DNA of 57,643 nt, taken from Ignavibacteriaceae bacterium (GTDB taxonomy: Bacteria > Bacteroidota > Ignavibacteria > Ignavibacteriales > Ignavibacteriaceae). The stretch's first letter is position 1. Every line of letters starts with the position of its first letter. Position numbers and translations under genes: made by a program. The stretch spans positions 1-57,643 of the forward strand of contig JAWOJF010000040.1 in assembly GCA_046481785.1 (NCBI GenBank), given 5' to 3'. Shown in pieces: positions 4,045 through 50,190 of the stretch. A model generated the notes under the pieces. It was not told where the DNA came from. It saw only the letters and a program-made list of their open reading frames with translations, and ran no database searches.

Positions 4045-5071
4045 TTCAAAAGATATTAAAGTATCCATGGAAGATTTAACAGGAGCCCAAAAAGCAGCTC
4101 TCTTAATGATTGCTCTTGATGTGGATACTGCATCGGAAGTGTTCAAAAATCTTGATGCGGCTGAAGTAGAAACGATTTCAGCAGAAATTTCAAAAGTAAG
4201 AAATATTCCAGCTACTACCGTTAATTCAGTAATGGAAGATTTCTACAACATGATTACTGCCCGTGAATATGTGCTTGAGGGTGGTATTGACTATGCGCAG
4301 GCTGTTCTTGAAAAATCATTTGGCCTGAATAAAGCTGTTGAAATTATTGAAAAAGTAAAAGACCTGACCACACTGAGGGGTTTTGATGTATTAAAAAAGG
4401 CCGACTCTACCCAGTTGATTAATTTCCTGAATAAAGAACATCCGCAAACTATTGCTTTAATATTATCAAACCTTGACCCCGGACAAACCGCCAGCGCTTT
4501 AAAAGAACTTCCTGAGAATGTAAGAACTGATGTAGTATTCAGGATAGCGACACTTGGCAAGGTATCACCGCAGACATTAAAGCAGGTTGAAAAAGTTGTT
4601 GATGAAATGGCAGGGTTTACCATGAGCCAGGCTCTGAGCAAAATAGGGGGCACAAAAAGCCTTGCCACAATTTTAAACAGAACACCACTTTCTGTTAGTA
4701 AAGATATACTTGATAAGCTAAGCCAAAAAGACCCTGAAGTTGCTACCGAAGTTAAAAGACTGATGTTCCTGTTCGAAGATATTGTTCAGTTCCAGGATAA
4801 GGATATGCAGAAGATACTAAGAGGTATAGACAGGAAAGACCTTGCACTTGCATTAAAGATTGCGGATGATAAACTGAAGAACAAGATATTCAGCAATATG
4901 TCTGAAAGAGCTGCTGATTTGTTAAAAGAAGAACTTCAGTATATGGGTATGGTTAAATTAAAAGAAGTAGAAGCCGCTCAGGCAAGAATAATAGACTCAA
5001 TAAAAGTTCTCGAGGAATCAGGCGAAATATCCCTGAATATTCGTGGAACCAAAGATGAAGTTTATGTCTGA
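4028..5071 (+). CDS. fliG: flagellar motor switch protein FliG
   Basis: LTGAQKAALLMIAL..., EHPQTIALILS, MFLFEDI and the C-terminal torque helix region. The start may be one of several ATGs between 4028 and 4067. Confidence 0.93.
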   Translation: MKMNYNSKDIKVSMEDLTGAQKAALLMIALDVDTASEVFKNLDAAEVETISAEISKVRNIPATTVNSVMEDFYNMITAREYVLEGGIDYAQAVLEKSFGLNKAVEIIEKVKDLTTLRGFDVLKKADSTQLINFLNKEHPQTIALILSNLDPGQTASALKELPENVRTDVVFRIATLGKVSPQTLKQVEKVVDEMAGFTMSQALSKIGGTKSLATILNRTPLSVSKDILDKLSQKDPEVATEVKRLMFLFEDIVQFQDKDMQKILRGIDRKDLALALKIADDKLKNKIFSNMSERAADLLKEELQYMGMVKLKEVEAAQARIIDSIKVLEESGEISLNIRGTKDEVYV

Positions 5072-5693
5072 GAGAATCAAATTAAATATGAAACAGTCGA
5101 ATTTTTTTGTTAAGATAAAAAATCCGGCTGCTGATACTGAAGCCCCGGAGTCTAATGAAGATTTCGTACAGAAGCAGCTTCAAACCCAGTTTCAGCTTGG
5201 GTATAATAAAGGATATGAAGCAGCAACCGATGAACTTGAAAAAACATATTCCGAAAAACTGCTGAGCCGTTTAAAGGATATTCATAATGTTGCTGCAGCG
5301 CTTGAACACAAAATCCTGGAGCATGAAGAATATTATGAATCAGTAATAATTCAGTTATCTCTTATGGTTGCCGAAAAAATTATTAAAAGAGAGATTACTG
5401 ATAAGACCATTATTGATGAAGTAATGAAAGAATCCCTCAAAAAAATAATAGGGGCTAATAATGTAATTGTAAAGATAAATCCTTCGGATTTATCGGAGAT
5501 GTCATCTGAAGCCGGCCAATTAATGAATGACAGCGCCTTTACCAAAATAAAATTTGAACCTGATGACCGGATTGAACAGGGGGGATGTTTTATAGAGTCT
5601 GAGATAGGTAATGTGGATGCCCGCATATCTTCGCAGATAAATGAACTGAAAAAGAATTTAGATGCAGTCTCTTTTCATGGTACTAAAGAATGA
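5043..5693 (+). CDS. fliH: flagellar assembly protein FliH (export ATPase regulator)
   Basis: Position between fliG and fliI. C-terminal ...RIEQGGCFIESEIGNVDARISSQINELKK is FliH-like. The start is uncertain (GTG 5043, ATG 5055 or ATG 5064). Confidence 0.75.
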   Translation: MEPKMKFMSERIKLNMKQSNFFVKIKNPAADTEAPESNEDFVQKQLQTQFQLGYNKGYEAATDELEKTYSEKLLSRLKDIHNVAAALEHKILEHEEYYESVIIQLSLMVAEKIIKREITDKTIIDEVMKESLKKIIGANNVIVKINPSDLSEMSSEAGQLMNDSAFTKIKFEPDDRIEQGGCFIESEIGNVDARISSQINELKKNLDAVSFHGTKE

Positions 5694-7021
5694 ATATACA
5701 GCAACACTACATAAAGAAATTTAAACCGGTTATTTCCAGGTCGGAATTATATAAGGTAAATGGAAAAGTATCGGATGTAATTGGGTTAATTATTGTTTCA
5801 GTTGGGCCTAATGTATCGCTTGGGGAAATCTGTATTATTGTTGATAAAAGCGGTAATGAAGTCTGTAGAGCAGAAGTAGTTGGGTTTAAGGAAGGACGTG
5901 TTCTTTCAATTGCGCTTGGTGAGGTACATTCAATATCGCCTAATTGTGAAATTATTTCTACAGGAAAAAGTTTTAAAATGGCAGTAGGAAATGCACTATT
6001 GGGAAGAGTAATAGATGGGCTGGGTAATCCAATTGATGGCAAAGGCGATCTAAACTGCAGCCAGTTCAGGAATATCTATAAGGATCCGCCTAATCCTCTT
6101 ACAAGGCGAAGAATAGATACACCACTTCAGACAGGCGTCAGATCAATAGACGGCCTGCTTACAGTTGGAAAAGGGCAGCGAATAGGAATTTTTGCCGGAA
6201 GCGGTGTAGGGAAAAGTGTAACGCTGGGAATGATAGCAAGAAATACAAATGCAGATGTTAATGTAATAACATTAATTGGTGAAAGAGGCAGAGAAGTAAG
6301 AGAGTTTATTGAAAAAGATTTGGGTGAAGAAGGATTAAAACGTTCTGTTGTTGTAGTGGCAACAAGCGATAAACCATCACTTATCAGGATGAAGGGTGCT
6401 TATATAGGTACTACAATTGCGGAATATTTCAGAGAGCTGGGAATGGACGTTGTACTTATGATGGATTCGGTTACCAGGTTTGCAATGGCGCAAAGGGAAA
6501 TAGGCCTTACTATAGGTGAACCCCCGACAACCAAAGGATATACTCCTTCTGTGTTTGCTATACTTCCTAAACTTCTCGAACGGGCAGGCACAACTGATAC
6601 AGGCTCAATAACGGGTTTTTATACTGTTCTTGTAGATGGCGATGATATGAATGAACCCATTGCCGATGCAGCAAGATCTATTCTTGACGGTCATATAGTT
6701 TTATCCAGAAAGCTTGCAAATAAGGGTCAGTACCCGGCAGTTGATCCTCTCCAGAGCGTGAGCCGCGTGATGCCGGATATAACATCTTCGGAGCATAAAG
6801 CCCGTGCTTCTTCGTTTGTTGAAATACTTGCAACGTATAAAGAGGCCGAAGACCTTATAAATATTGGCGCATACGTTAAAGGCAGTAATCCGCTTATAGA
6901 TCATGCACTAAGTAAAATAAACTCCCTGCGTACTTTTCTTAAGCAGGATATGTATGACAAAGCAATTTTTCCTGAGACAATCTCTCATCTGTTCAGTTTA
7001 ATTGAACAACCGATTGACTAA
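5690..7021 (+). CDS. fliI: flagellum-specific ATPase FliI
   Basis: Walker A GSGVGKS and Walker B VLMMDSVTRFA. Full-length F1/T3SS ATPase pattern. Confidence 0.96.
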   Translation: MNIQQHYIKKFKPVISRSELYKVNGKVSDVIGLIIVSVGPNVSLGEICIIVDKSGNEVCRAEVVGFKEGRVLSIALGEVHSISPNCEIISTGKSFKMAVGNALLGRVIDGLGNPIDGKGDLNCSQFRNIYKDPPNPLTRRRIDTPLQTGVRSIDGLLTVGKGQRIGIFAGSGVGKSVTLGMIARNTNADVNVITLIGERGREVREFIEKDLGEEGLKRSVVVVATSDKPSLIRMKGAYIGTTIAEYFRELGMDVVLMMDSVTRFAMAQREIGLTIGEPPTTKGYTPSVFAILPKLLERAGTTDTGSITGFYTVLVDGDDMNEPIADAARSILDGHIVLSRKLANKGQYPAVDPLQSVSRVMPDITSSEHKARASSFVEILATYKEAEDLINIGAYVKGSNPLIDHALSKINSLRTFLKQDMYDKAIFPETISHLFSLIEQPID

Positions 7022-7027
7022 AAAATT

Positions 7028-7459
7028 ATGAAATTCGTTTACAAGTTTGACGCAATAAAAAAAATAAAAGAAATTTTTGAAAAAAGAGTTCAAAAAGAAG
7101 TAGCTGCAATTCAGCTCGAAATAGAGAAGAAGGAAGAAGAGTATAATGCTATTCTTCTGCAGAGAGTTTTGGAAAGCAAGAGAGATATGAAGCATATTTC
7201 ATCTTCTGAATTAAAGTTTCATAAAAATTATCTTGGCGTGCTCAGTAGTGAGCTTGGAAAGATCAGGAAAGAAATAGACCTGCTTGGAAAGAAAAAAGAT
7301 GAGAAACTTCTGGAGCTTATACAAAAAAGTAAAGAACATAAAATATTTAATACCCTGGAAGAAATACATTTTGAGAATTTTACACAGGAACAAAATAAAC
7401 TGGAGATGATAAGTATTGATGAAATTGCAACACAAAAATTTGCCAGGAACAAAAATTGA
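7028..7459 (+). CDS. fliJ: flagellar export chaperone-like protein FliJ
   Basis: 143-aa Lys/Glu-rich coiled-coil protein directly after fliI. The call is based on position and composition. Confidence 0.65.
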   Translation: MKFVYKFDAIKKIKEIFEKRVQKEVAAIQLEIEKKEEEYNAILLQRVLESKRDMKHISSSELKFHKNYLGVLSSELGKIRKEIDLLGKKKDEKLLELIQKSKEHKIFNTLEEIHFENFTQEQNKLEMISIDEIATQKFARNKN

Positions 7460-8109
7460 AAGATAAACTGATTTATATTGTGGCTTTTACAATGGCTTTC
7501 CTGCTTGTTACAGGCGGGTTTCTCTATCTTAACACAATATATAAAAATATTTTTGCATTCGATTTTACTCCCGTGAATGCTCAGACTGAAGAGCCTGTTG
7601 AGGACACGGATGAATCAGAACAGAAAGAGGAAACAAAACAGGAAGTAAATGAGCCTGAGATGCAGGAAGAACCGGAAGGAATACCTGTTTATATAAACAC
7701 TGATTCAATAAAAATTGCCATGCGGAAAAACAGTGCAGATTCATCCGCATTAAAAGACTCTGTTGTTGTAAAAAAAGATAAGAGTGTTGTGCTGGAGGAT
7801 TCAATTAAAAATTTGAAGCAGCAGATAAAAGAAATTGCTTCAAAAAAAGATCAAATACTGGAAGCCAAGATAGATTCGCTTAAACTGGCAAGTAAAATAT
7901 CTGTTGCAGACAGCTCATACAAAGCATGGATAAAGAAAACAGTTTCGCTCTATGAAGCAATGGATTCCAGGAAGGCTGCTAAAATAATTCTTACTTACTC
8001 CGATAATATTGCAAAGGACATCCTCTATTCAATGAAGAAAAAGAAAGCCGCTGAAATATTGGCGCAATACAGTCCCGAAACAGTAAATAGGATAACAAGT
8101 ATAAAATGA
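7456..8109 (+). CDS. YlxF/MotE/FlbB-like flagellar protein with MgtE_N-type C-terminal domain
   Basis: N-terminal TM segment. C-terminal YEAMDSRKAAKIIL..IAKDILYSMKKKKAAEILAQYSPE resembles the MgtE-N/MotE repeat. It sits between fliJ and fliK, the same position as B. subtilis ylxF. Confidence 0.6.
   Translation: MKDKLIYIVAFTMAFLLVTGGFLYLNTIYKNIFAFDFTPVNAQTEEPVEDTDESEQKEETKQEVNEPEMQEEPEGIPVYINTDSIKIAMRKNSADSSALKDSVVVKKDKSVVLEDSIKNLKQQIKEIASKKDQILEAKIDSLKLASKISVADSSYKAWIKKTVSLYEAMDSRKAAKIILTYSDNIAKDILYSMKKKKAAEILAQYSPETVNRITSIK
7980..8006 (+). promoter_or_regulatory. candidate sigma28 (FliA)-type promoter, TAAA-N15-TCCGATAA, internal to the ylxF-like gene and ~100 nt upstream of fliK
   Basis: TAAA 7980-7983, exactly 15 nt, then TCCGATAA 7999-8006. 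The consensus is TAAA-N15-GCCGATAA. Confidence 0.4.
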
Positions 8110-10421
8110 TGACATCAAACACATTAACCGCATCTGCTAATACAGCAGGCAGCCTATTCCAGATTTTTAATCTTCCAAAAGCAGGCAATTCCTCTTATTT
8201 ATTCTCAGACATTATAAAAATTATTGGCAACGAAGCAGACCCTCAAACAATTAATAACCTGCCGGGCATAACTGCATCATCAACTGCAGGAACCGCCGTG
8301 CCTGAGTTAAATATTATTGATACCTCAAAGCTTATTGGCTTGCTTTTAAAAAATATAAACGGCGAAACAGGAAAGAATGCAGAGACAAATGAAAACCTTT
8401 CCGGAGAACAGTTCTATATAAGTGAAAATGATCTAAATGACTTTATTACTTTACTTGGACTGGAAAAAACATCTGCTGTTGCTCAACAACTATCGGAAAT
8501 AGAAGTTGAAATTAGTCCCGAATTTCTTGAAAAACTCGCAAGGTTTACAGGTGGTTCAGTTAAAGATAATGGCAAACATTTATTTATTAGTCTGGATAAC
8601 AGTATTAATGATGAAAATAAGGATGATAGTGAAGTAATTCCATCGGGAAACAAAAAAATAAAAATTATTTTTAAAAAAATTGAACAGGATAATTCACTCA
8701 ATTCTTTACAACCGGAACTACTTGCAGGCGATTTTAATTATAAAATAATCCATACTTTAGAGACAACCGGTGCTGTTAACCCCGGCTTAACCGCAGAACC
8801 GGAAAAAACAATTGTTGTTTCCCCAAATGCCCAGGCAAATGGAAGCACAAAAGTTTCTGCAAAAGGCCAGGGAGTGGATCAAAAAATCCAGGTGCAAACC
8901 GGAAATATTGAATTTGAATTAACTTCCGGTGAAGATGAGATTTCCACTGTAAAAAATTCAACTGATATTGCTGCAAAGCCTGTATCAGATAGCCAGGAAT
9001 TAACAGGTAATAAGTTACCTGTTGATAAAAAACCTGTGTTTAATGTTGGTTCAAATATTAAAATAGAAAATCCTGATAAAGAAATTACTCAAGTTAATAC
9101 TAAATCAAATAATAAAGCAGAACCCGTAATTAACGTATCAACAGAAGATAGTAGTGATACAGATGTAATGACTGCTCAAAAGATTTCTATTAAGTCCGAA
9201 ATGACAGAGCCTGCCGGCGAGAAAATAAAAGTTAACATGCAGGAATCTCATACTAAACTGGTAATTAAACCTTTGCCGGATAAAACGGGAACTGAATCTG
9301 CGGAAAAAATATCCGGCAGGCAGGATACTAAAATATCTTTAACCCTTCCCGGAAAAGAGCCGGTTGAAGGTTTACAAAAAACTTCTGTAGAAAATACATC
9401 AACAAAAAATGTTTCAGTAGAAAATTCATCAACAAAGAATGTTTCAGTAGAAAATTCATCTGACAAAACCGCTCCCAAGACAGTTGAAAAAGTTTTTAGC
9501 CGCCCTCTTATTCCTAACGAAATATTAAAAGGTGAAGAAGATATAAAAACACCCGGTACCACAGCTAAGACGGTTAGTGAACTAAAGAGCCTCTACCAGG
9601 TAACCTTTGAGAAGGCGGAACCCAAAAACCCGATAAATAATGAAAAAAGCCTTCCTCATAATTTTTATACTTCAGATTATGAAGAGTTTGATAACGGACT
9701 CTTTACTGATAAGCTTCAGGCGGTTGTAAAAGAAAAGGTAATACAGGGTAAACCGGAAGAACACTCAACTAACCAGGCTACTTCTTCTGCAAAGGATGGT
9801 CTTCCGGAGAATAAGATCACTGTTAAAGAAAGCCCGGGCGATTCACAGGACAAATCTGCATCAAATAATAACTCCGGTGAAAACCATCAGGGAAATAAGC
9901 AGAATATGAAGCCAGGCAATGAGTTTATTTTAGAGCCTGTCCAGTCAAGGAATGCTTCAAATGATTCTGCTAGTACCGGTAAAACTGAACCTGTTAAAGA
10001 TTATACATTATTTAAGAATATAAATGCAAATGATCTGATTGATGAAGTTAAAAGTCTTGTTGTAAAAGGTGAAAGATCAAATGTTGTACTTAAACTTAAC
10101 CCCGGGCATCTTGGAAGTGTAAAACTGATTATTGAGATAAAAGATGCCGTGATGAATACTAAAATTGAAGTTGAGAATGAGTCGGTAAGACAAATAGTAC
10201 AAAACAATGTAGACATTTTAAAACAATCACTCCAGCAAAATGGAATACATTTAAATTCTTTTACAGTTTCCCTTACTTCACAGGAGCAGAAATCATCATC
10301 TGCAAAACCGGAACACAAGAAAAAGGGGCATACTGTAAAGAATGATATTACAATTGACGAAGAGATAAATGCCTCAGCGTCTAAAAAAATGGGTTACAAC
10401 ACGTACGAATATCTTGCTTAA
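8106..10421 (+). CDS. fliK: flagellar hook-length control protein FliK
   Basis: 771 aa. Long low-complexity Ser/Thr/Asn/Lys-rich ruler region. C-terminal Flg_hook domain (VVLKLNPGHLGSVKLIIEIKD...ENESVRQIVQNNVDILKQSLQQNGIHL). Confidence 0.88.
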   Translation: MMTSNTLTASANTAGSLFQIFNLPKAGNSSYLFSDIIKIIGNEADPQTINNLPGITASSTAGTAVPELNIIDTSKLIGLLLKNINGETGKNAETNENLSGEQFYISENDLNDFITLLGLEKTSAVAQQLSEIEVEISPEFLEKLARFTGGSVKDNGKHLFISLDNSINDENKDDSEVIPSGNKKIKIIFKKIEQDNSLNSLQPELLAGDFNYKIIHTLETTGAVNPGLTAEPEKTIVVSPNAQANGSTKVSAKGQGVDQKIQVQTGNIEFELTSGEDEISTVKNSTDIAAKPVSDSQELTGNKLPVDKKPVFNVGSNIKIENPDKEITQVNTKSNNKAEPVINVSTEDSSDTDVMTAQKISIKSEMTEPAGEKIKVNMQESHTKLVIKPLPDKTGTESAEKISGRQDTKISLTLPGKEPVEGLQKTSVENTSTKNVSVENSSTKNVSVENSSDKTAPKTVEKVFSRPLIPNEILKGEEDIKTPGTTAKTVSELKSLYQVTFEKAEPKNPINNEKSLPHNFYTSDYEEFDNGLFTDKLQAVVKEKVIQGKPEEHSTNQATSSAKDGLPENKITVKESPGDSQDKSASNNNSGENHQGNKQNMKPGNEFILEPVQSRNASNDSASTGKTEPVKDYTLFKNINANDLIDEVKSLVVKGERSNVVLKLNPGHLGSVKLIIEIKDAVMNTKIEVENESVRQIVQNNVDILKQSLQQNGIHLNSFTVSLTSQEQKSSSAKPEHKKKGHTVKNDITIDEEINASASKKMGYNTYEYLA
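9387..9460 (+). repeat. 30-bp tandem repeat (about 2.5 units) inside fliK, encoding VENxSTKNVS repeats
   Basis: Unit 1 is 9387-9416, unit 2 is 9417-9446 (2 mismatches) and the partial unit 3 starts at 9447. Protein: VENTSTKNVSVENSSTKNVSVENSSDK. Confidence 0.85.
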
Positions 10422-10442
10422 AGCAGGATAAATCGGAGAGAT

Positions 10443-10469
10443 TAAACTTTTAAAGCATTTCTCCGATAA
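10443..10469 (+). promoter_or_regulatory. candidate sigma28 (FliA)-type promoter, TAAA-N15-TCCGATAA, in the fliK-flgD spacer
   Basis: TAAA 10443-10446, 15 nt, then TCCGATAA 10462-10469. The -10 octamer is the same as at 7999-8006. It is embedded in the inverted repeat ATCGGAGA (10432-39) / TCTCCGAT (10460-67). Confidence 0.45.
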
Positions 10470-10526
10470 TAAGATGTAAAATGGTGCCTGAAGCAAAGGT
10501 ACAATGATATCAGAAAACTTTAACCA

Positions 10527-10599
10527 GAGCGGGACCTTTTAAGGACGCTCCAACCCCTGCCTAATGGCAGGCAAACTGCCCGACTGACTGAAGGCGGTT
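10527..10599 (+). promoter_or_regulatory. conserved structured leader element, copy 1 (three stem-loops), upstream of flgD
   Basis: H1 is GAGCG/CGCTC, H2 is CCTGCC/GGCAGG and H3 is AACTGCC/GGCGGTT. It is about 89% identical to 11770-11843, with compensatory changes in H3. Confidence 0.6.
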
Positions 10600-10691
10600 A
10601 ACATGAACCTTAAAGGTTAAACACTTCTGATTTCCACACTTTAGCTTACCAGGCTTATAAATCCTTAAGTTTTATTACAAGGAATATTATT

Positions 10692-11384
10692 ATGATTGAT
10701 ACAGTAAACAGTGGTTATTCCGGAACATACTCGCCAGAAGGAGCTGGAAAAAGCGAACTTGGTAAGGATGACTTCCTGAAACTTATGATAACCCAGTTGA
10801 GATATCAGGATCCTATGAACCCTTTGGACAGCAACGAATACAGTGCACAGCTTGCGCAGTTCAGCTCGCTGGAACAGCTTACCAATCTTAACGAAAATCT
10901 TACCTCTATGATTGAGGCTAACTATACTTTAACACAGTCTGTTTATAATACTATGACCACTACTTTAATTGGCAAAGAAGTAAAAGTTGATGGTAACGAA
11001 TTTAATAATAAAGGGCAGGATAGTATTGATCTGGGATTTAACTTATCTGCTGCTCCTGCAAATACAACTATTAAAATTTATAATGAATCAGGTAAGCTTG
11101 TAAGAACAATTGATGATAAGTCATTCAGCTCTGGTGATAATAAACTAAACTGGGATTTTACAGATGATTCCGGCAATGAGCTTCCCGAAGGCAAATACAG
11201 TTTTGAAGTTGAAGCAAAAGGTTACGGCGATACAAATCTTACTGTTAAAAGCTTTAAATATGGAACAATTAACAGCATTAAATATACTGAAGACGGAATT
11301 ATGCTTTTGATTAACGGAATGGAGTATCTGCCGGCAGAAATTATAGAAATAACAAATCCTTCAAACAGCGAAGGAGATAACTAA
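10692..11384 (+). CDS. flgD: flagellar hook assembly/capping protein FlgD
   Basis: GKDDFLKLMITQLRYQDPMNPLDSNEYSAQLAQFSSLEQL is the canonical FlgD N-domain. The C-terminal part is FlgD Ig-like. Confidence 0.93.
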   Translation: MIDTVNSGYSGTYSPEGAGKSELGKDDFLKLMITQLRYQDPMNPLDSNEYSAQLAQFSSLEQLTNLNENLTSMIEANYTLTQSVYNTMTTTLIGKEVKVDGNEFNNKGQDSIDLGFNLSAAPANTTIKIYNESGKLVRTIDDKSFSSGDNKLNWDFTDDSGNELPEGKYSFEVEAKGYGDTNLTVKSFKYGTINSIKYTEDGIMLLINGMEYLPAEIIEITNPSNSEGDN

Positions 11385-11385
11385 A

Positions 11386-11757
11386 ATGGCAGAGATAAAC
11401 GGGATTAAAGTTCCCTTTATACCAATAATCAGTGAGCCGGTACTTCAGAAAAAGATTAATACCGATTCTGGAGATTTTGATGCCATTTTTCAGCAGGAAC
11501 TTGAGAAAGTAAAATTCTCAAATCATGCAATGAAAAGACTTGAAACAAGAAATATACAGCTTGGCGATGAAGAAATCGGCAAAATCCAGAACGCTGTGGA
11601 ACTTGCAGAGCAGAAGGGTTCAAAAGACTCTCTGGTACTTATGAACAATACAGCTTTTATTGTTAATGTTCCTAACAGAACTGTTGTTACAGCATTGCCT
11701 GTTAATGATAGTTCGGAAAATATTTTTACAAATATAGACAGTGTAGTTTTAATATAA
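11386..11757 (+). CDS. flagellar operon protein of the TIGR02530-like family found between flgD and flgE in Firmicutes and spirochetes
   Basis: FSNHAMKRLETRNIQL....AVELAEQKGSKDSLVLMNNTAFIVNVPNRTVVTA matches my memory of that family pattern. The position is conserved. Confidence 0.6.
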   Translation: MAEINGIKVPFIPIISEPVLQKKINTDSGDFDAIFQQELEKVKFSNHAMKRLETRNIQLGDEEIGKIQNAVELAEQKGSKDSLVLMNNTAFIVNVPNRTVVTALPVNDSSENIFTNIDSVVLI

Positions 11758-11769
11758 GTAAATAATAAA

Positions 11770-11843
11770 GAGCGGGACCTTTTAAGGACGCTCCGACCCC
11801 CTGCCTGACGGCAGGAAGGCTGCCCGACTGACTGAAGGCAGCC
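11770..11843 (+). promoter_or_regulatory. conserved structured leader element, copy 2, upstream of flgE
   Basis: The first 26 nt are identical to copy 1. H3 here is GGCTGCC/GGCAGCC. It is followed by hairpin AACCT(11861-65)/AGGTT(11870-74), which encloses the flgE SD AGGAGG. Confidence 0.6.
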
Positions 11844-11877
11844 AACACAAATTAAACATAAACCTTAGGAGGTTATA

Positions 11878-13614
11878 ATGGCACTTCTTAATTCACTCTT
11901 TGCAGGCGTATCAGGTATGCGTAATCATCAGTCAATGATGGATGTTATTGGCAATAACATTGCAAACGTTAATACAATCGGGTTCAAGGGTTCAAGAATC
12001 ACCTTCAGTGATGCTTTTAACCAGTTTGTAAAAGCAGGTACAAACCCAACTGCATCAACAGGTGGTACAAATACTTTCCAGGTGGGTCTTGGTATGAAAA
12101 TAAATTCCATAGACAGGAACTGGAACCAGGGTACATTTGAAAGAACAGGGATTACAACTGATATGGCTTTGCAGGGCCCCGGAATGTTTGTTCTTAAAAG
12201 TAATGAAGAAAGATTTTATTCAAGAGCAGGTGCATTTATTTTTGATGCAGATGGTAAACTAGTTTCTCCTCAAAACGGAGCTATTGTGCAGGGCAAGGTT
12301 GCTAATAGTGATGGTGCTGTACCTCCCGGAAACAACCTTGAGGATATAGTAATTGATACGAATTTAAAACTTCCTGCAATTGCAACCGACCTGATAAAAT
12401 GGGGCGGTAATCTGAAAAGTAATTCCGAGTTAACCAGGTCAGATAATGTGGTACAAAGAGGTAATCTAAATTCAAATTTTGAGGCCCCGGCTACAGCGCC
12501 AGGACCATTCGATACCCAAACTGCTATATATAATGAATTGGGTGAGAAGTATATTCTTAAAGTTACATATACTGCAACAGCAACACCTAATGAATATGAC
12601 ATGACATGGAGAGTTCTAGATGAAGAAGGCGAGCCATTCCTTCTTGATCCAACAGATCCGCTTTCTATTGATCCGGCTTATGATGGCGCTCTTCCTAATC
12701 CTATTTTATTTATTGAAAATCCTCCAAGCAGCGGAAATTTTGTTTTGGATGATACTTCAAAGGCCTATTTTGATAGTGATAGTACCGATGATAATCATGT
12801 TACTGTTCCTGGTTTTGATGCAGGATTTGATATAGAGGCAGGTTCAATTACTCAGAATGGCAGTACAACAACATTAAGTTTATCTGCTGATGGTAATAGA
12901 GAACCTAATATTGTTAGTGGTTCAGTAACAATATTCGATTCACTTGGTACATCACACCAGGTTACAATGAAATATACAAAAATTCTTGATAATACCTGGA
13001 TCTGGAGTGCTTCGATACCCGGTATAAGCACTGATAACGGTCTTGCAGTGGATTCAACAGGAACAATTACATTTAACTCTGATGGTACATTGGATCCGAG
13101 TAAAATTGCGCCGAATAATCCTCAGCTTACATTTACACCTGCGGGAGGTGCTAATCTTATGGTTATTGATCTCGATTTCGGAAGAGGATTTGGCGGTGTT
13201 ACACAAACTTCTTCAAGTTCAGTAATTTCAGCTTTAAACCAGAATGGTTCAGCATCAGCTTCATTATCAAACATAAATATTGACCAGTATGGACACATTG
13301 TAGGTATATTCTCTAACGGTAATTCAAGAACCCTTGCACAGGTAATGGTAGCAACTTTTGCAAACCTTAACGGTTTAATAAGTGTTGGCGATAACCTCTT
13401 TTCATCATATGCTAACTCAGGGGATCCCAGAATAGCATCGCTTGGTGAAGAAAGCGGCACTACTGTTCAATCAGGTGCTCTTGAGCAATCCAATGTAGAC
13501 CTTAGTGAAGAGTTTACAAAAATGATAGTATCGCAGAGGGGTTTCCAGGCTAATGCCAGGGTAATTTCAACTGCAGATACTTTACTCCAGGAAATAACAA
13601 ATCTGATCAGATAA
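11878..13614 (+). CDS. flgE: flagellar hook protein FlgE
   Basis: N-terminal ALLNSLFAGVSGMRNHQSMMDVIGNNIANVNTIGFK. C-terminal ALEQSNVDLSEEFTKMIVSQRGFQANARVISTADTLLQEI. Confidence 0.95.
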   Translation: MALLNSLFAGVSGMRNHQSMMDVIGNNIANVNTIGFKGSRITFSDAFNQFVKAGTNPTASTGGTNTFQVGLGMKINSIDRNWNQGTFERTGITTDMALQGPGMFVLKSNEERFYSRAGAFIFDADGKLVSPQNGAIVQGKVANSDGAVPPGNNLEDIVIDTNLKLPAIATDLIKWGGNLKSNSELTRSDNVVQRGNLNSNFEAPATAPGPFDTQTAIYNELGEKYILKVTYTATATPNEYDMTWRVLDEEGEPFLLDPTDPLSIDPAYDGALPNPILFIENPPSSGNFVLDDTSKAYFDSDSTDDNHVTVPGFDAGFDIEAGSITQNGSTTTLSLSADGNREPNIVSGSVTIFDSLGTSHQVTMKYTKILDNTWIWSASIPGISTDNGLAVDSTGTITFNSDGTLDPSKIAPNNPQLTFTPAGGANLMVIDLDFGRGFGGVTQTSSSSVISALNQNGSASASLSNINIDQYGHIVGIFSNGNSRTLAQVMVATFANLNGLISVGDNLFSSYANSGDPRIASLGEESGTTVQSGALEQSNVDLSEEFTKMIVSQRGFQANARVISTADTLLQEITNLIR

Positions 13615-13632: not shown

Positions 13633-13662
13633 GGCGGGATAGCAGTATCCCGCCTTTTTTTT
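13633..13662 (+). terminator. Rho-independent terminator after flgE
   Basis: GGCGGGAT (13633-40), loop AGCAGT, ATCCCGCC (13647-54), then T8 (13655-62). Confidence 0.85.
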
Positions 13663-13875
13663 GTAGCACAGGCTTTAGCCTGTGTTTTTTTTTGTGAGCA
13701 AGTTAAACCCCGAAATTATCCAGCACGGGCTTTAGCCTGTGATGTTTGTAAAGCAGGCCGGGCGGGTACATATGAACATCTTAATTCTCTTAAAAATCAG
13801 TCCTTTTCACAGGCTAAGGCTTGTGCTGCATAATTTCCAGTTGTTTTCTGTTCACAGGCTAAAGCCTGTGCTACA
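13662..13875. repeat. nested inverted array of four REP/BIME-like palindromic units (A, B, C', D'); possibly MITE-like
   Basis: A (13662-84, TGTAGCACAGGCTTTAGCCTGTG) is the perfect reverse complement of D (13853-75). B (13712-41) is about 87% identical to the reverse complement of C (13808-38). Each unit is itself a CACAGGCT..AGCCTGTG hairpin. Confidence 0.8.
13667..13693 (+). terminator. second hairpin plus T9 (palindromic unit A acting as a back-up terminator)
   Basis: CACAGGCT (13667-74), TT, AGCCTGTG (13677-84), followed by T9 (13685-93). Confidence 0.6.
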
Positions 13876-37129: not shown

Positions 37130-37510
37130 ATGAAAATAGTAACCTTTCAATTTGGTGAGATAGAGTTTAGTCCGGACAAAGTTATTAACTTCTCCTCCGG
37201 TATATTAGGTTTTGAAAACCTCAGGAGTTTTCTATTGATTAAAACTGAGGATGATCTTTTTTATTGGCTTAATTCTGTTGATAAGCCTGACATTGCATTC
37301 CCAATGATTGGTACAAGGGTAATAGATGAAAAATATCCTTGCGAGGAAGAGCATGAAGCTTTTGCAATTGTTACCCTTAACAGCGATCCCTTAAAAGTTA
37401 CTGCTAATCTTAAAGCCCCGGTATATATTAATCAGGAGAAGAAATCAGGTTTCCAGAGAGTTATAGACACTGATAATTATCCCGTTAACTTTAATCTTTT
37501 TATAGAATAG
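37130..37510 (+). CDS. fliW: flagellar assembly factor FliW (CsrA antagonist)
   Basis: FGEIEF..DKVINFSSGILGFENL..FLLI......FYWLNSVD.PDIAFPMI...ANLKAPVYIN is the FliW pattern. Adjacent to csrA. Confidence 0.9.
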   Translation: MKIVTFQFGEIEFSPDKVINFSSGILGFENLRSFLLIKTEDDLFYWLNSVDKPDIAFPMIGTRVIDEKYPCEEEHEAFAIVTLNSDPLKVTANLKAPVYINQEKKSGFQRVIDTDNYPVNFNLFIE

Positions 37511-37523
37511 GCGGGTAAAATTA

Positions 37524-37778
37524 ATGTTGATATTAACAAGAAGAGCAAACGAAGAAATTAAAATAAGCCCTGATATTACTATCAGGATTTTGTCTTCTTC
37601 AGACAGCCAGGTAAAAATAGGTATTGATGCCCCGCCTGATGTTCAGATATTGCGGGGTGAAATATTTGATAAAATAGTGCAGAGTACTGTTGATGCCTCA
37701 GCACAAAGTAAAATAAAAGTAAATGATGTGTCGGCCTTAAAGCTTAATAAAATTGGCGGTTCAGATGGTAAACAGTGA
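37524..37778 (+). CDS. csrA: carbon storage / translational regulator CsrA
   Basis: MLILTRRANEEIKI.PDITIRIL......VKIGIDAPPDVQILRGEI is the canonical CsrA sequence. Confidence 0.95.
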   Translation: MLILTRRANEEIKISPDITIRILSSSDSQVKIGIDAPPDVQILRGEIFDKIVQSTVDASAQSKIKVNDVSALKLNKIGGSDGKQ

Positions 37779-49062: not shown

Positions 49063-50190
49063 TTATTTATCCAGCCTTTTTATTTCTATTTCACCATAAC
49101 TTGTATCAAGGAAAATTTTCCTGCCGCCGCCGTTAAAAGAATAAGTGGCCTTGATATTATCGTTATTTTTATTCACACTTTTACTCGTCGGAGTTAAATC
49201 ATAACGGATAAAATCCGTTTCATCATAACTGGAATGTTTACCGAATCCCCGTATCCTTACTTCAACTGTTATTTTTTCATTTTCAGCTATATATAATTTT
49301 ATATTGCCGTTATTGGTTTTTGCCCGGGATTCAGAATTTATATTCTGAAGTTCTATATGAATATCCCCTGAGCCGGATATTGCTTTTACAGATCCGTCAA
49401 CTTTATATAAATAAACACTCCCGGCCCCTGTTGATGCCTCAATACGTCCTTTTACCTGTAAGGATTTAATATTACCGCCGCCTGTATTCAGAGTTGCATC
49501 TCCATTAACATTCTTAATACTAATATTACCGCCGCCTGTGTTCAGCTTTACTTTGCCGTTTATTTCATCAACAACAATATTCCCACCGGCCGTATTAATA
49601 GCAATTGATTTACTGACATTGTTAATCCTTATATTTCCGCCTGAAGTAGAAACAGTGCCATTCCCATCAATGTTTGATAAATGTAAATCACCGCCGTAGG
49701 TTAAAATTTTCATTTCTCCCTTAATTTCCTCTGCTGTTACATCACCGCCGTATGTGTGCAGGTCGGTATATCCGCTTACTTTTTCTATAGAAATATCACC
49801 GCCTGAAGTAACACCCTTAAGACTTCCGACAAAGGAGCCCTTAACAGTAAGGTCTCCTGCCTGCGTACTCATCTCAACATAAAAATAAGACGGTACAGTA
49901 ACCTCTACATCCGAATAGTTGGAATTATTTGATCTTATTCTTACATGATTACCTGCAAATTTTACCAATAACCCATCTTCGTCCTCATCATAATCATCAT
50001 CATACCTAACAAGTACTTCGTTTTTATTCCATGTTTTAATTGATATATCGCCATAAGACAAATCAACTAAAAGATGCCCGTTTTTATTTACCTTAAAGGT
50101 CTTGGTTTTATAATTCTGACTAAAAACTGTCGCTGAGTTAATCAGAAAAAATATCATAACTATTTTTGCAACAGCACTGCACTTATTCAT
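49063..50190 (-). CDS. DUF4097-type repeat protein (putative beta-helical adhesin, LiaG/YvlB-like)
   Basis: Signal peptide and iterated GGDI/GGNI repeats (TSGGDISIEKV, TYGGDVTAEEI, TYGGDLHLSNI, TSGGNIRINNV, TAGGNIVVDEI, TGGGNISIKNV, TGGGNIKSLQV). Confidence 0.7.
   Translation of the reverse strand: MNKCSAVAKIVMIFFLINSATVFSQNYKTKTFKVNKNGHLLVDLSYGDISIKTWNKNEVLVRYDDDYDEDEDGLLVKFAGNHVRIRSNNSNYSDVEVTVPSYFYVEMSTQAGDLTVKGSFVGSLKGVTSGGDISIEKVSGYTDLHTYGGDVTAEEIKGEMKILTYGGDLHLSNIDGNGTVSTSGGNIRINNVSKSIAINTAGGNIVVDEINGKVKLNTGGGNISIKNVNGDATLNTGGGNIKSLQVKGRIEASTGAGSVYLYKVDGSVKAISGSGDIHIELQNINSESRAKTNNGNIKLYIAENEKITVEVRIRGFGKHSSYDETDFIRYDLTPTSKSVNKNNDNIKATYSFNGGGRKIFLDTSYGEIEIKRLDK

Follow-up and report, generated by a model that had tools for sequence, protein, structure and literature searches.

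A structured RNA motif in the leader of the flagellar hook gene flgE, with a second copy before flgD in an Ignavibacteriaceae bacterium

Introduction

How the much higher output of hook protein is set inside long fla/che-type flagellar operons is, to our knowledge, poorly understood outside enteric bacteria. Post-transcriptional control of flagellar genes is well documented for flagellin, by CsrA-FliW and FlbT, and for FlgM. An operon of the fla/che type lies on contig JAWOJF010000040.1 of an Ignavibacteriaceae bacterium (GenBank assembly GCA_046481785.1), a stretch of 57,643 nucleotides that we refer to as the window, and it raises a specific question: what is the hairpin-forming element of some 75 nucleotides that stands twice in this operon, once in the spacer between fliK and flgD and once directly before the hook gene flgE? 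An earlier note, made from the sequence alone, had picked out the copy before flgD and likened it to an attenuator or riboswitch that switches between alternative pairings. Comparison with other genomes leads us to a different answer. We take the element to be a widespread structured RNA motif of the flgE 5′ leader, present here twice, through which a trans-acting factor would set hook-gene translation or mRNA stability, a reading to which we give a probability of about one half. In whichever way it acts, the motif probably helps to control hook-protein production.

Results

Two copies of one element in the window

Both copies lie on the + strand, at 10525-10602 before flgD (copy 1) and at 11768-11846 before flgE (copy 2). 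They agree in 65 of 75 aligned columns (87%, slightly less than the roughly 89% first reported). The 25-nt segment containing the first hairpin (H1) and the 20-nt segment from the third (H3) each occur exactly twice in the 57.6-kb window, on the + strand, and in none of 100 shuffled versions, which bears out the reported recurrence before flgE in the same orientation. Re-reading the sequence confirmed every position and sequence given for H1, H2 and H3, for a small hairpin behind them (10606-10618), for the second copy (11770-11843) and for the 270-nt fliK-flgD spacer (10422-10691).

The minimum-free-energy (MFE) folds of both copies consist of exactly the three stem-loops proposed (z = -3.0 and -3.4). 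In copy 1, H1 (10527-10550) has an outer stem of GAGCG (10527-10531) and CGCUC (10546-10550, CGCTC in the DNA). Its 14-nt loop, described as carrying two GGA motifs, is not open: CCU and AGG pair in an inner helix, and what is left is an internal loop, GGA/A, and an apical loop of 4 nt, UUUA. This arrangement, and not an open GGA loop, is the conserved one, and binding of CsrA to the two motifs is no more than a possibility. H1 of copy 2 (11770-11793) is identical and starts 12 nt after the stop codon of flg_new, the small gene between flgD and flgE. H2 pairs CCUGCC (10556-10561) with GGCAGG (10566-10571) in copy 1, spanning 10556-10571, and the same arms form it at 11800-11815 in copy 2. H3 (10574-10599 and 11818-11843) has a 7-bp stem, AACUGCC (10574-10580)/GGCGGUU (10593-10599) in copy 1 and GGCUGCC/GGCAGCC in copy 2, closing in both cases on the conserved 12-nt loop CGACUGACUGAA (CGACTGACTGAA as read from the DNA). 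Alignment of the copies confirmed that their H3 differences are compensatory.

Homologues precede flgE in many lineages

We collected 80 loci around flgD from GTDB genomes (numbered below with the prefix L; about 20 kb per genome, 1.4 Mb in total) and searched both strands with covariance models, whose quick calibration makes the E-values rough. A model built from the two window copies only (R1), the check that had been proposed, found homologues at the same position in related genomes, with significant matches in five Ignavibacteria loci and weaker ones in Caldithrix, KSB1, Marinimicrobia and metagenome-assembled genomes (MAGs) labelled ‘Bacteroidota’. All R1 matches outside the window had H2 deleted, and only H1 and H3 aligned. 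A second model, from 14 sequences (R2), matched 29 of the 80 loci at E<0.2, all on the flgE strand and all ending 7-57 nt upstream of the flgE start as located by tblastn with the FlgE N-terminus; one further match, at E = 0.56, was noise. R2 widened the range of taxa to Kryptoniota, Chitinispirillales (Fibrobacterota), Citrifermentans bremense (L045) and other Geobacteraceae, Pelovirga, another deltaproteobacterial MAG and Bdellovibrionota.

With search filters off, or by eye, the full motif was also found in L023, H1 followed directly by the Shine-Dalgarno sequence in L041, L049 and L072, and H1 followed by a different second hairpin in L042, L051 and L066. Counting H1-only variants, 36 of the 80 loci carry the motif upstream of flgE, and the lineages concerned include Ignavibacteria, Calditrichota, KSB1, Marinimicrobia, Fibrobacterota, Geobacteraceae and Bdellovibrionota, together with contigs of Clostridia. 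H1 starts 0-25 nt after the flg_new stop codon in many loci and 56-103 nt after it in some.

A third model, of H1 only (R3), was searched over 1.42 Mb (84 loci) and gave 42 matches at E<=10, of which 37 were flgE leaders or the flgD copy of the window, the latter scoring 31.9 bits. The remaining matches were low-scoring and lay in two very GC-rich loci; no significant match in the 84 loci fell outside such leaders. R3 replaced a hand-written regular expression for H1, which had returned hundreds of chance matches in GC-rich genomes when run over all loci. A pattern scan of metagenomes (GCGGGACCN{5,9}GGACGC) likewise proved too loose: all 120 of the loci it returned were chance matches on GC-rich contigs, without the H3 loop. 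Plasmids gave no tblastn match to flg_new.

The Clostridia examples come from Oscillospiraceae/Ruminococcaceae contigs, four of five of which carry the motif, with H1 beginning at, and overlapping, the flg_new stop codon. A further match (L206, E = 1.7e-5) falls in a record from human faeces labelled ‘Bacteriophage sp.’ (MT835480.1, 31633-43956). Its gene order, fliI-fliJ-fliK-flgD-flg_new-flgE-motA, is that of Clostridia and the relatives of its flg_new are annotated as Ruminiclostridium or Oscillospiraceae; the region looks like a Clostridia flagellar contig, bacterial and not phage. The Oscillospiraceae leaders L207, L208, L210 and L211 also have in common a CGGUUGACA box that follows H3 by about 10-20 nt and precedes the Shine-Dalgarno sequence of flgE. 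Pairing of UCGGUU with GACCGA in the H3 loop would give a possible pseudoknot in L210 and L211, but not in L207 and L208. Among loci of the Fibrobacterota-Chlorobiota-Bacteroidota (FCB) group, an A/U-rich box resembling UUAAUUAA(Y) lies 2-25 nt upstream of H1 in L001-L004, L007, L011, L014, L019 and L029; its role could be that of a -10-like element or of an RNase site, or it could belong to the motif.

The conserved core is two covarying hairpins

The homologues define H1 as GGGCY-GGN-CC(YY)...apex 3-60 nt...(RR)GG-R-RGCCC: a GC-rich outer stem of 5 bp, then an invariant GG-N/R 3x1 internal loop and an inner CC(Y)/(R)GG stem, capped by an apex that varies freely. In H3, a 7-bp stem whose sequence is free apart from a closing C-G pair carries a 12-nt loop, nGAnnGAnnGAn, in which G11, A12, G15, A16, G19 and A20 are invariant or nearly so; loop pattern and stem covariation hold across 32 sequences. 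The linker between H1 and H3 measures 0 to about 30 nt and may contain a whole hairpin.

Covariation in these homologous leaders is abundant. In the model-fitted alignment 97.6% of cells are paired and 14 of 15 pairs show double-sided changes, against 34-53% paired in slid controls. Such an alignment leans towards its own structure, and the count was therefore repeated on structure-agnostic MAFFT alignments, where H1 is still 94.8% paired, with double-sided changes in seven of eight pairs (slid controls 36-65%). For H3 an ungapped, loop-anchored alignment gave 96.4% paired, against 50% in shuffles and 31-45% in slid controls, and a covariation score of 1.17 against 0.22. G-U pairs occur on the flgE-sense strand only. 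The conserved core is thus two hairpins, H1 and H3, on the flgE-sense strand, with H2 as an optional insert; the three-hairpin architecture of the window, correct as a fold of its two copies, is not a feature of the family.

Strand specificity and an apex of variable length speak for an RNA rather than a DNA palindrome. An operator or promoter for flgE acting at the DNA level would fit the TTGACA-like sequences just upstream, which arise from conserved IDS codons of flg_new, and a sigma-54-like TGGCA-N7-TGC can be read across H2 and H3 in the window copies. Yet the stems change sequence freely with their complementarity kept, every match lies on the flgE strand and the H1 apex tolerates insertions of 3-60 nt; together with the one-sided G-U pairs, this leaves a DNA element very improbable. 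The sigma-54-like candidate was also rejected in its own right, because it depends on the non-conserved H2.

The flgD copy is a recent duplication and H2 an optional insert

The three nearest relatives recovered (L201, L204 and L205) lack both the flgD copy and H2. Their fliK and flgD genes are separated by 8 nt in L201 and L204 and by a 112-nt spacer without the element in L205. In the window, copy 1 continues after H3 with AACCUUAAAGGUU, a degenerate version of the flgE Shine-Dalgarno hairpin AACCUUAGGAGGUU that is conserved in Ignavibacteria. The intact hairpin, AACCU-UAGG-AGGUU at 11861-11874 with AGGAGG at 11867-11872, keeps its sequence in L001, L003, L004, L201 and L204; the relic that aligns with it in copy 1, AACCU-UAA-AGGUU (10606-10618), stands 74 nt before the flgD start and hence is not the flgD ribosome-binding site. 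The presence of this degenerate hairpin shows that copy 1 is a recent, lineage-specific duplication of the whole flgE leader into a new 270-nt spacer. On these comparisons the flgE copy is the ancestral and widely conserved one, and the flgD copy, which the earlier note had emphasised, a younger paralogue. As the leader was copied to a position before flgD, both hook-assembly genes now carry the same leader.

The new spacer also contains the sigma-28 promoter candidate noted before, TAAA-N15-tCCGATAA at 10443-10469 (+ strand), 5′ of copy 1. Found by a regular-expression scan, it is a match to the consensus only; transcription from it would begin about 50 nt before H1 and take in flgD, flg_new and flgE. 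Only one other such match occurs in the window (7980-8006, same pattern). Like the match at 10443 it is on the + strand and shortly precedes flagellar genes; it lies inside an unassigned open reading frame (7456-8109), about 100 nt upstream of the fliK start.

The stems of H2 and H3 have the same sequence (CUGCC/GGCAG) and the H2 loop resembles part of the H3 loop, so that H2 looks like a truncated duplicate of H3. Such an origin would explain their cross-complementarity, on which the proposed switch between H1:H2 plus H3 and an H2-H3 helix had been based. The complementarity of GGCAG in the H2 3′ arm to CUGCC in the H3 5′ arm does exist on paper, in both window copies. The alternative fold is nevertheless 5.1 (copy 1) and 9.4 kcal/mol (copy 2) less stable, with an ensemble probability below 5e-4. 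H2 is absent from nearly all homologues, the nearest relatives included, and where L014 and L013 have one, it is not complementary to the H3 of their own species; in species without H2 or with other H3 stems the helix cannot form, and since H3 stems differ between species, the complementarity is particular to this genome. The + strand also has no intrinsic terminator, terminator-like site or U-tract between 10422 and 11878 through which a transcription attenuator could act. An attenuator or riboswitch-like switch of this design is, in our view, highly unlikely.

Two near-identical copies 1.24 kb apart could also suggest a dispersed repeat, of the repetitive extragenic palindrome (REP) type or a miniature transposable element (MITE), that happened to land twice in one operon. 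A repeat finder found no third copy in the 57.6 kb, the copies lack terminal repeats and target duplications, and the homologues, in more than 40 loci and many phyla, keep the same position relative to flgE and occur nowhere else in 1.4 Mb of flagellar loci. We regard chance insertion of a repeat as next to impossible.

The motif co-occurs with flg_new

The gene between flgD and flgE in the window, flg_new (11386-11757, + strand), encodes an uncharacterised small flagellar protein of 123 residues that matches NCBIfam TIGR02530 (116.7 bits) and Pfam PF12611. When the 80 loci were searched by tblastn with diverse flg_new queries, 36 had both flg_new and H1 and 43 had neither; none had H1 without flg_new, and the one with flg_new and no H1 (L005) is a contig that ends inside flg_new and is not evaluable. 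Fisher's test, applied without phylogenetic correction, gives 5e-22 for this co-occurrence. Loci where flgE directly follows flgD showed no motif.

Within Ignavibacteria, flg_new is 65-79% identical, against 50-69% for FlgD. Two segments of the TIGR02530 protein are invariant: NG-x-x-VPF-x-P in its N-terminal part, for which disorder is predicted, and FTNIDSVV in its C-terminal part. The Pfam model covers no more than the last 24 residues. The AlphaFold model is of low confidence (predicted local distance difference test, pLDDT, 66) and a fold search of the PDB with it returned no match (best E = 0.17).

Comparison with known RNA elements

A cmscan of the whole window against Rfam 15 at gathering thresholds gave no matches, in agreement with the earlier failure to recognise an RNA family. 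A permissive run (E<=10) on the window leaders and those of L211 and L045 returned chance-level matches to unrelated eukaryotic and snoRNA models only, and in seven homologous loci the only matches were cspA and a group II intron, neither of which lies at the element. Nothing relevant on a flgE leader motif or on TIGR02530 function was found in the literature and the Breaker/Weinberg motif catalogues, a search outside which many subscription journals lay. The motif is apparently new, being absent from Rfam 15 and matched by no paper found. A resemblance of H1 to domain IV of signal recognition particle (SRP) RNA and to GEMM-I was considered and is unsupported by any cmscan match.

The nearest precedent is the Termite-flg RNA motif (RF01729), a conserved structured RNA in the presumed 5′ untranslated region of a flagellar gene, found by comparative genomics (Weinberg et al. 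2010, PMC2864571). Like the present motif it is a flagellar-gene leader RNA discovered by comparison; unlike it, Termite-flg precedes flagellin genes of termite-gut bacteria (reading frame MVINHNMSA...), is longer and, judged by its seed alignment, is unrelated in sequence and structure, sharing no sequence with H1 or H3. It had no cmscan match in the window or the homologous loci even at E<=10. The flg-Rhizobiales family (RF01736) had no cmscan match either, and is restricted to flagellar leaders of Rhizobiales, to which the taxa here are unrelated. The c-di-GMP-I and -II riboswitches (GEMM) are cis-acting leaders of flagellar operons, common in Geobacter, Bdellovibrio and Clostridia (PMC1950547). 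The present motif differs in being much smaller, with a variable linker and no recognisable expression platform, and it matches GEMM-I/II, which are defined by P1/P2 with tetraloop and receptor and by conserved junction nucleotides, in neither sequence nor structure; none of the three leaders gave a match to these families even at E<=10. A kink-turn of the L7Ae/YbxF type, in which tandem sheared G-A/A-G pairs come directly after a 3-nt bulge, is not formed as far as the sequence can be read: the 3-nt bulge of H1 (GGN) is followed by C-G and not G-A, and H3 could form tandem G-A pairs (loop positions 2-3 with 10-11) but lacks the 3-nt bulge.

A CsrA site has two or more A(N)GGA motifs, as a rule in the loops of hairpins, and one of them overlaps the Shine-Dalgarno sequence. 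H1 of the window has two GGA motifs, which are partly paired, and the Shine-Dalgarno hairpin has AGGAGG in its loop and 3′ arm. The genome also encodes FliW (37130-37510) and, directly after it, CsrA (37524-37778). Together with FliW, CsrA controls the flagellin mRNAs hag of Bacillus subtilis and flaA of Campylobacter jejuni (PMC4894983, PMC6529632), a post-transcriptional checkpoint on a flagellar structural gene, where the sites bound by the protein are purine motifs in hairpins of the leader, close to the Shine-Dalgarno sequence. The motif described here would resemble that system in these respects, and differs in that its target is the hook gene and not flagellin and that its conserved determinants are GG-N/R and nGAnnGAnnGAn, not GGA. 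The fliW-csrA pair stands after flgN-flgK-flgL-like-motAB genes, and its CsrA is of the flagellar partner-switch type.

Genes and other features around the element

In the operon, the element is preceded by fliI (5690-7021), fliJ (7028-7459), the unassigned reading frame and fliK (8106-10421). Copy 1 is followed by flgD (10692-11384, + strand; Pfam FlgD, FlgD_ig and FlgD_tudor), the gene of the hook cap protein, and copy 2, behind flg_new, by flgE (11878-13614, + strand; Pfam Flg_bb_rod, FlgE_D2 and Flg_bbr_C), the gene of the hook protein and the one served by the conserved leader; fliL and fliM come next. Homologues of FlgD place the window in Ignavibacteria, the best named ones being Ignavibacteriales and Melioribacteraceae and the nearest 69% identical. 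The flgE-fliL spacer holds, within 13633-13875, a canonical terminator-like hairpin, discussed below, and then four copies of an 18-nt palindrome, CACAGGCTnnAGCCTGTG, at 13667, 13724, 13808 and 13853. This palindrome is absent elsewhere in the window, where 0.07 would be expected by chance. Further downstream, what is presumably a coding region with repeats contains four units of 54 nt in tandem or nearly so (49467-49790; 61-100% identical).

Discussion

The evidence that carries our reading is the position and the pattern of conservation of the motif. The gap between motif and start codon can be as short as 7-15 nt and in many loci leaves no room for a promoter, and we infer that the motif must be part of the flgE mRNA; in this sense the original proposal of a structured element in a transcribed leader of hook genes stands, as a conserved and strand-specific one. 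Invariant unpaired purines in stems that covary freely are characteristic of sites recognised by a trans-acting factor, and the nearness to the ribosome-binding site hints at control of translation, mRNA stability or both. We propose that the invariant unpaired purines of H1 and H3, displayed on stems of free sequence, would form the recognition surface for such a factor, most likely a protein. Candidates would be the TIGR02530 protein, which co-occurs with the motif, and CsrA with its partner FliW (37130-37778). Binding near the ribosome-binding site could tune translation and/or stability of the flgE mRNA, and in this genome perhaps also of flgD-flg_new, which would allow the cell to adjust its output of hook protein separately from the other products of the long flagellar operon. 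Protein-binding operators such as ribosomal-protein leaders, the ThrRS operator and the MS2 coat-protein hairpin have the same architecture of covarying short hairpins with few invariant unpaired purines by the ribosome-binding site. The likeness is one of architecture only, without homology, and autoregulation by the adjacent TIGR02530 protein is a hypothesis drawn from that analogy. The complement of the H3 loop, sought as a trans RNA partner, occurs nowhere else in the window, and a cis pseudoknot of the H3 loop with the flgE initiation region was rejected (mean z = -0.16, inconsistent positions).

Several observations weigh against this reading. GGA, the CsrA determinant, is not invariant in H1, being absent from the 3′ strand in about 7 of 40 sequences across the family, and H3 has none. 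The H1-only variants show that H3 is dispensable in some lineages, and since the motif stands at varying distances from the Shine-Dalgarno sequence, a simple steric block of the ribosome cannot be taken for granted. The statistic for co-occurrence with flg_new ignores phylogeny, and gene order alone could carry an intergenic RNA along; neither the structural model of the TIGR02530 protein nor the fold search gives any indication of RNA binding. Coverage was about 20 kb around flgD per genome, which leaves room for sites elsewhere. Finally, L051, a GC-rich MAG labelled Pseudomonadota, has besides its flgE-leader H1 (1345-1380) a second H1-like hairpin, GGGCUGGCCCCGCGGGGGGGGCCC, at 4646-4673 (E = 0.29), with a FliL-like reading frame whose Shine-Dalgarno sequence and start come about 20 nt later; this second hairpin may be a further recruitment of the leader to a flagellar gene, or chance in GC-rich DNA.

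The motif might instead act as an mRNA processing or stability element. The operon transcript would be cleaved, or newly started, in the flg_new-flgE spacer, and H1, a stable GC-rich hairpin, would be the protective 5′ stem-loop of a longer-lived, higher-yield flgE segment. Hook stoichiometry gives this idea its appeal: the cell needs far more copies of FlgE than of FliK, FlgD or the flg_new product. An A/U-rich tract (AAUUAA-like) precedes H1 in many FCB-group loci and, directly 3′ of flgE, a terminator scan found an intrinsic-terminator-like hairpin with a U-run (13633-13654, + strand), followed by further hairpins, which would bound the 3′ end of such a segment. With terminators following flgE, a 5′-stabiliser role is a serious rival, though on balance an unlikely one: a generic 5′ stabiliser needs neither an invariant GG-N/R loop nor a GA-periodic 12-nt loop across phyla.

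Two further explanations invoke a rearrangement of the leader itself. In a riboswitch for a small molecule or second messenger, the H1 internal loop and the H3 loop would dock as a ligand pocket controlling flgE translation. Highly conserved unpaired nucleotides within covarying stems and a location directly upstream of the ribosome-binding site would suit this, flagellar genes are often targets of c-di-GMP riboswitches (PMC1950547), and in some species the 5′ strand of H1 can pair alternatively with the Shine-Dalgarno sequence. The H1-only variants L041, L049 and L072, a linker of 0 to about 30 nt with room at times for an entire hairpin, the absence of a conserved expression platform and the lack of a match to any Rfam riboswitch family all speak against it, and we think a riboswitch improbable.

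That alternative pairing is itself the basis of the second explanation. The inner helix of H1 (CCUC/GAGG or CCUU/AAGG) would be a decoy duplex that mimics Shine-Dalgarno and anti-Shine-Dalgarno sequences; if H1 were opened, for instance when ribosomes terminate at the stop codon of flg_new, the pyrimidine strand of this helix would pair with the flgE Shine-Dalgarno sequence and couple flgE to flg_new translation. The MFE fold of 11763-11880 does pair 11776-11787, the apical part of H1, with 11863-11874 in the Shine-Dalgarno hairpin, the predicted pairing probability is high in the window (0.87), L016 (0.90), L041 (1.00), L006 (0.85) and L011 (0.60), and H1 lies close to the flg_new stop in many loci, overlapping it in Clostridia. 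The pairing does not, however, extend across the family (mean z = -0.70): predictions for most Geobacteraceae and Bdellovibrionota do not show it, and it is absent in Clostridia, whose inner stem is only CC/GG. The loci with H1 56-103 nt from the flg_new stop fit poorly, and H3 is left unexplained. As an account of the motif such a switch has little likelihood; as a lineage-specific layer added to recognition by a trans-acting factor, in this genome and some others, pairing of the CCUU/CCUC strand with the flgE Shine-Dalgarno sequence instead of its own partner may play a part.

A more specific form of the trans-factor reading would make the motif and the TIGR02530 protein a hook-stage checkpoint. 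The protein would bind H1/H3 of the flgE leader, and here also of the flgD-flg_new leader as autoregulation, and would be removed by titration or export once the basal body is ready, coupling FlgE translation to assembly. It shares a disordered, highly conserved N-terminus with flagellar export substrates and chaperones, and the scheme would be analogous to FlgM/sigma-28 or FliW/CsrA, differing in that it would act on the hook gene and be conserved from Clostridia to Ignavibacteria and Geobacter. We offer it as a speculation, and a rather doubtful one.

The motif can be studied in culture, in Citrifermentans bremense, where it was found, and probably in Ignavibacterium, Melioribacter, Bdellovibrio and gut Clostridia. 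It is a compact RNA element with strong covariation, placed before flgE in at least eight phylum-level lineages, and its co-occurrence with TIGR02530 provides a first functional handle on this uncharacterised ‘flagellar operon protein’. The recruitment of the leader to flgD in the Ignavibacteriaceae genome amounts to a natural experiment, and argues for a portable regulatory module.

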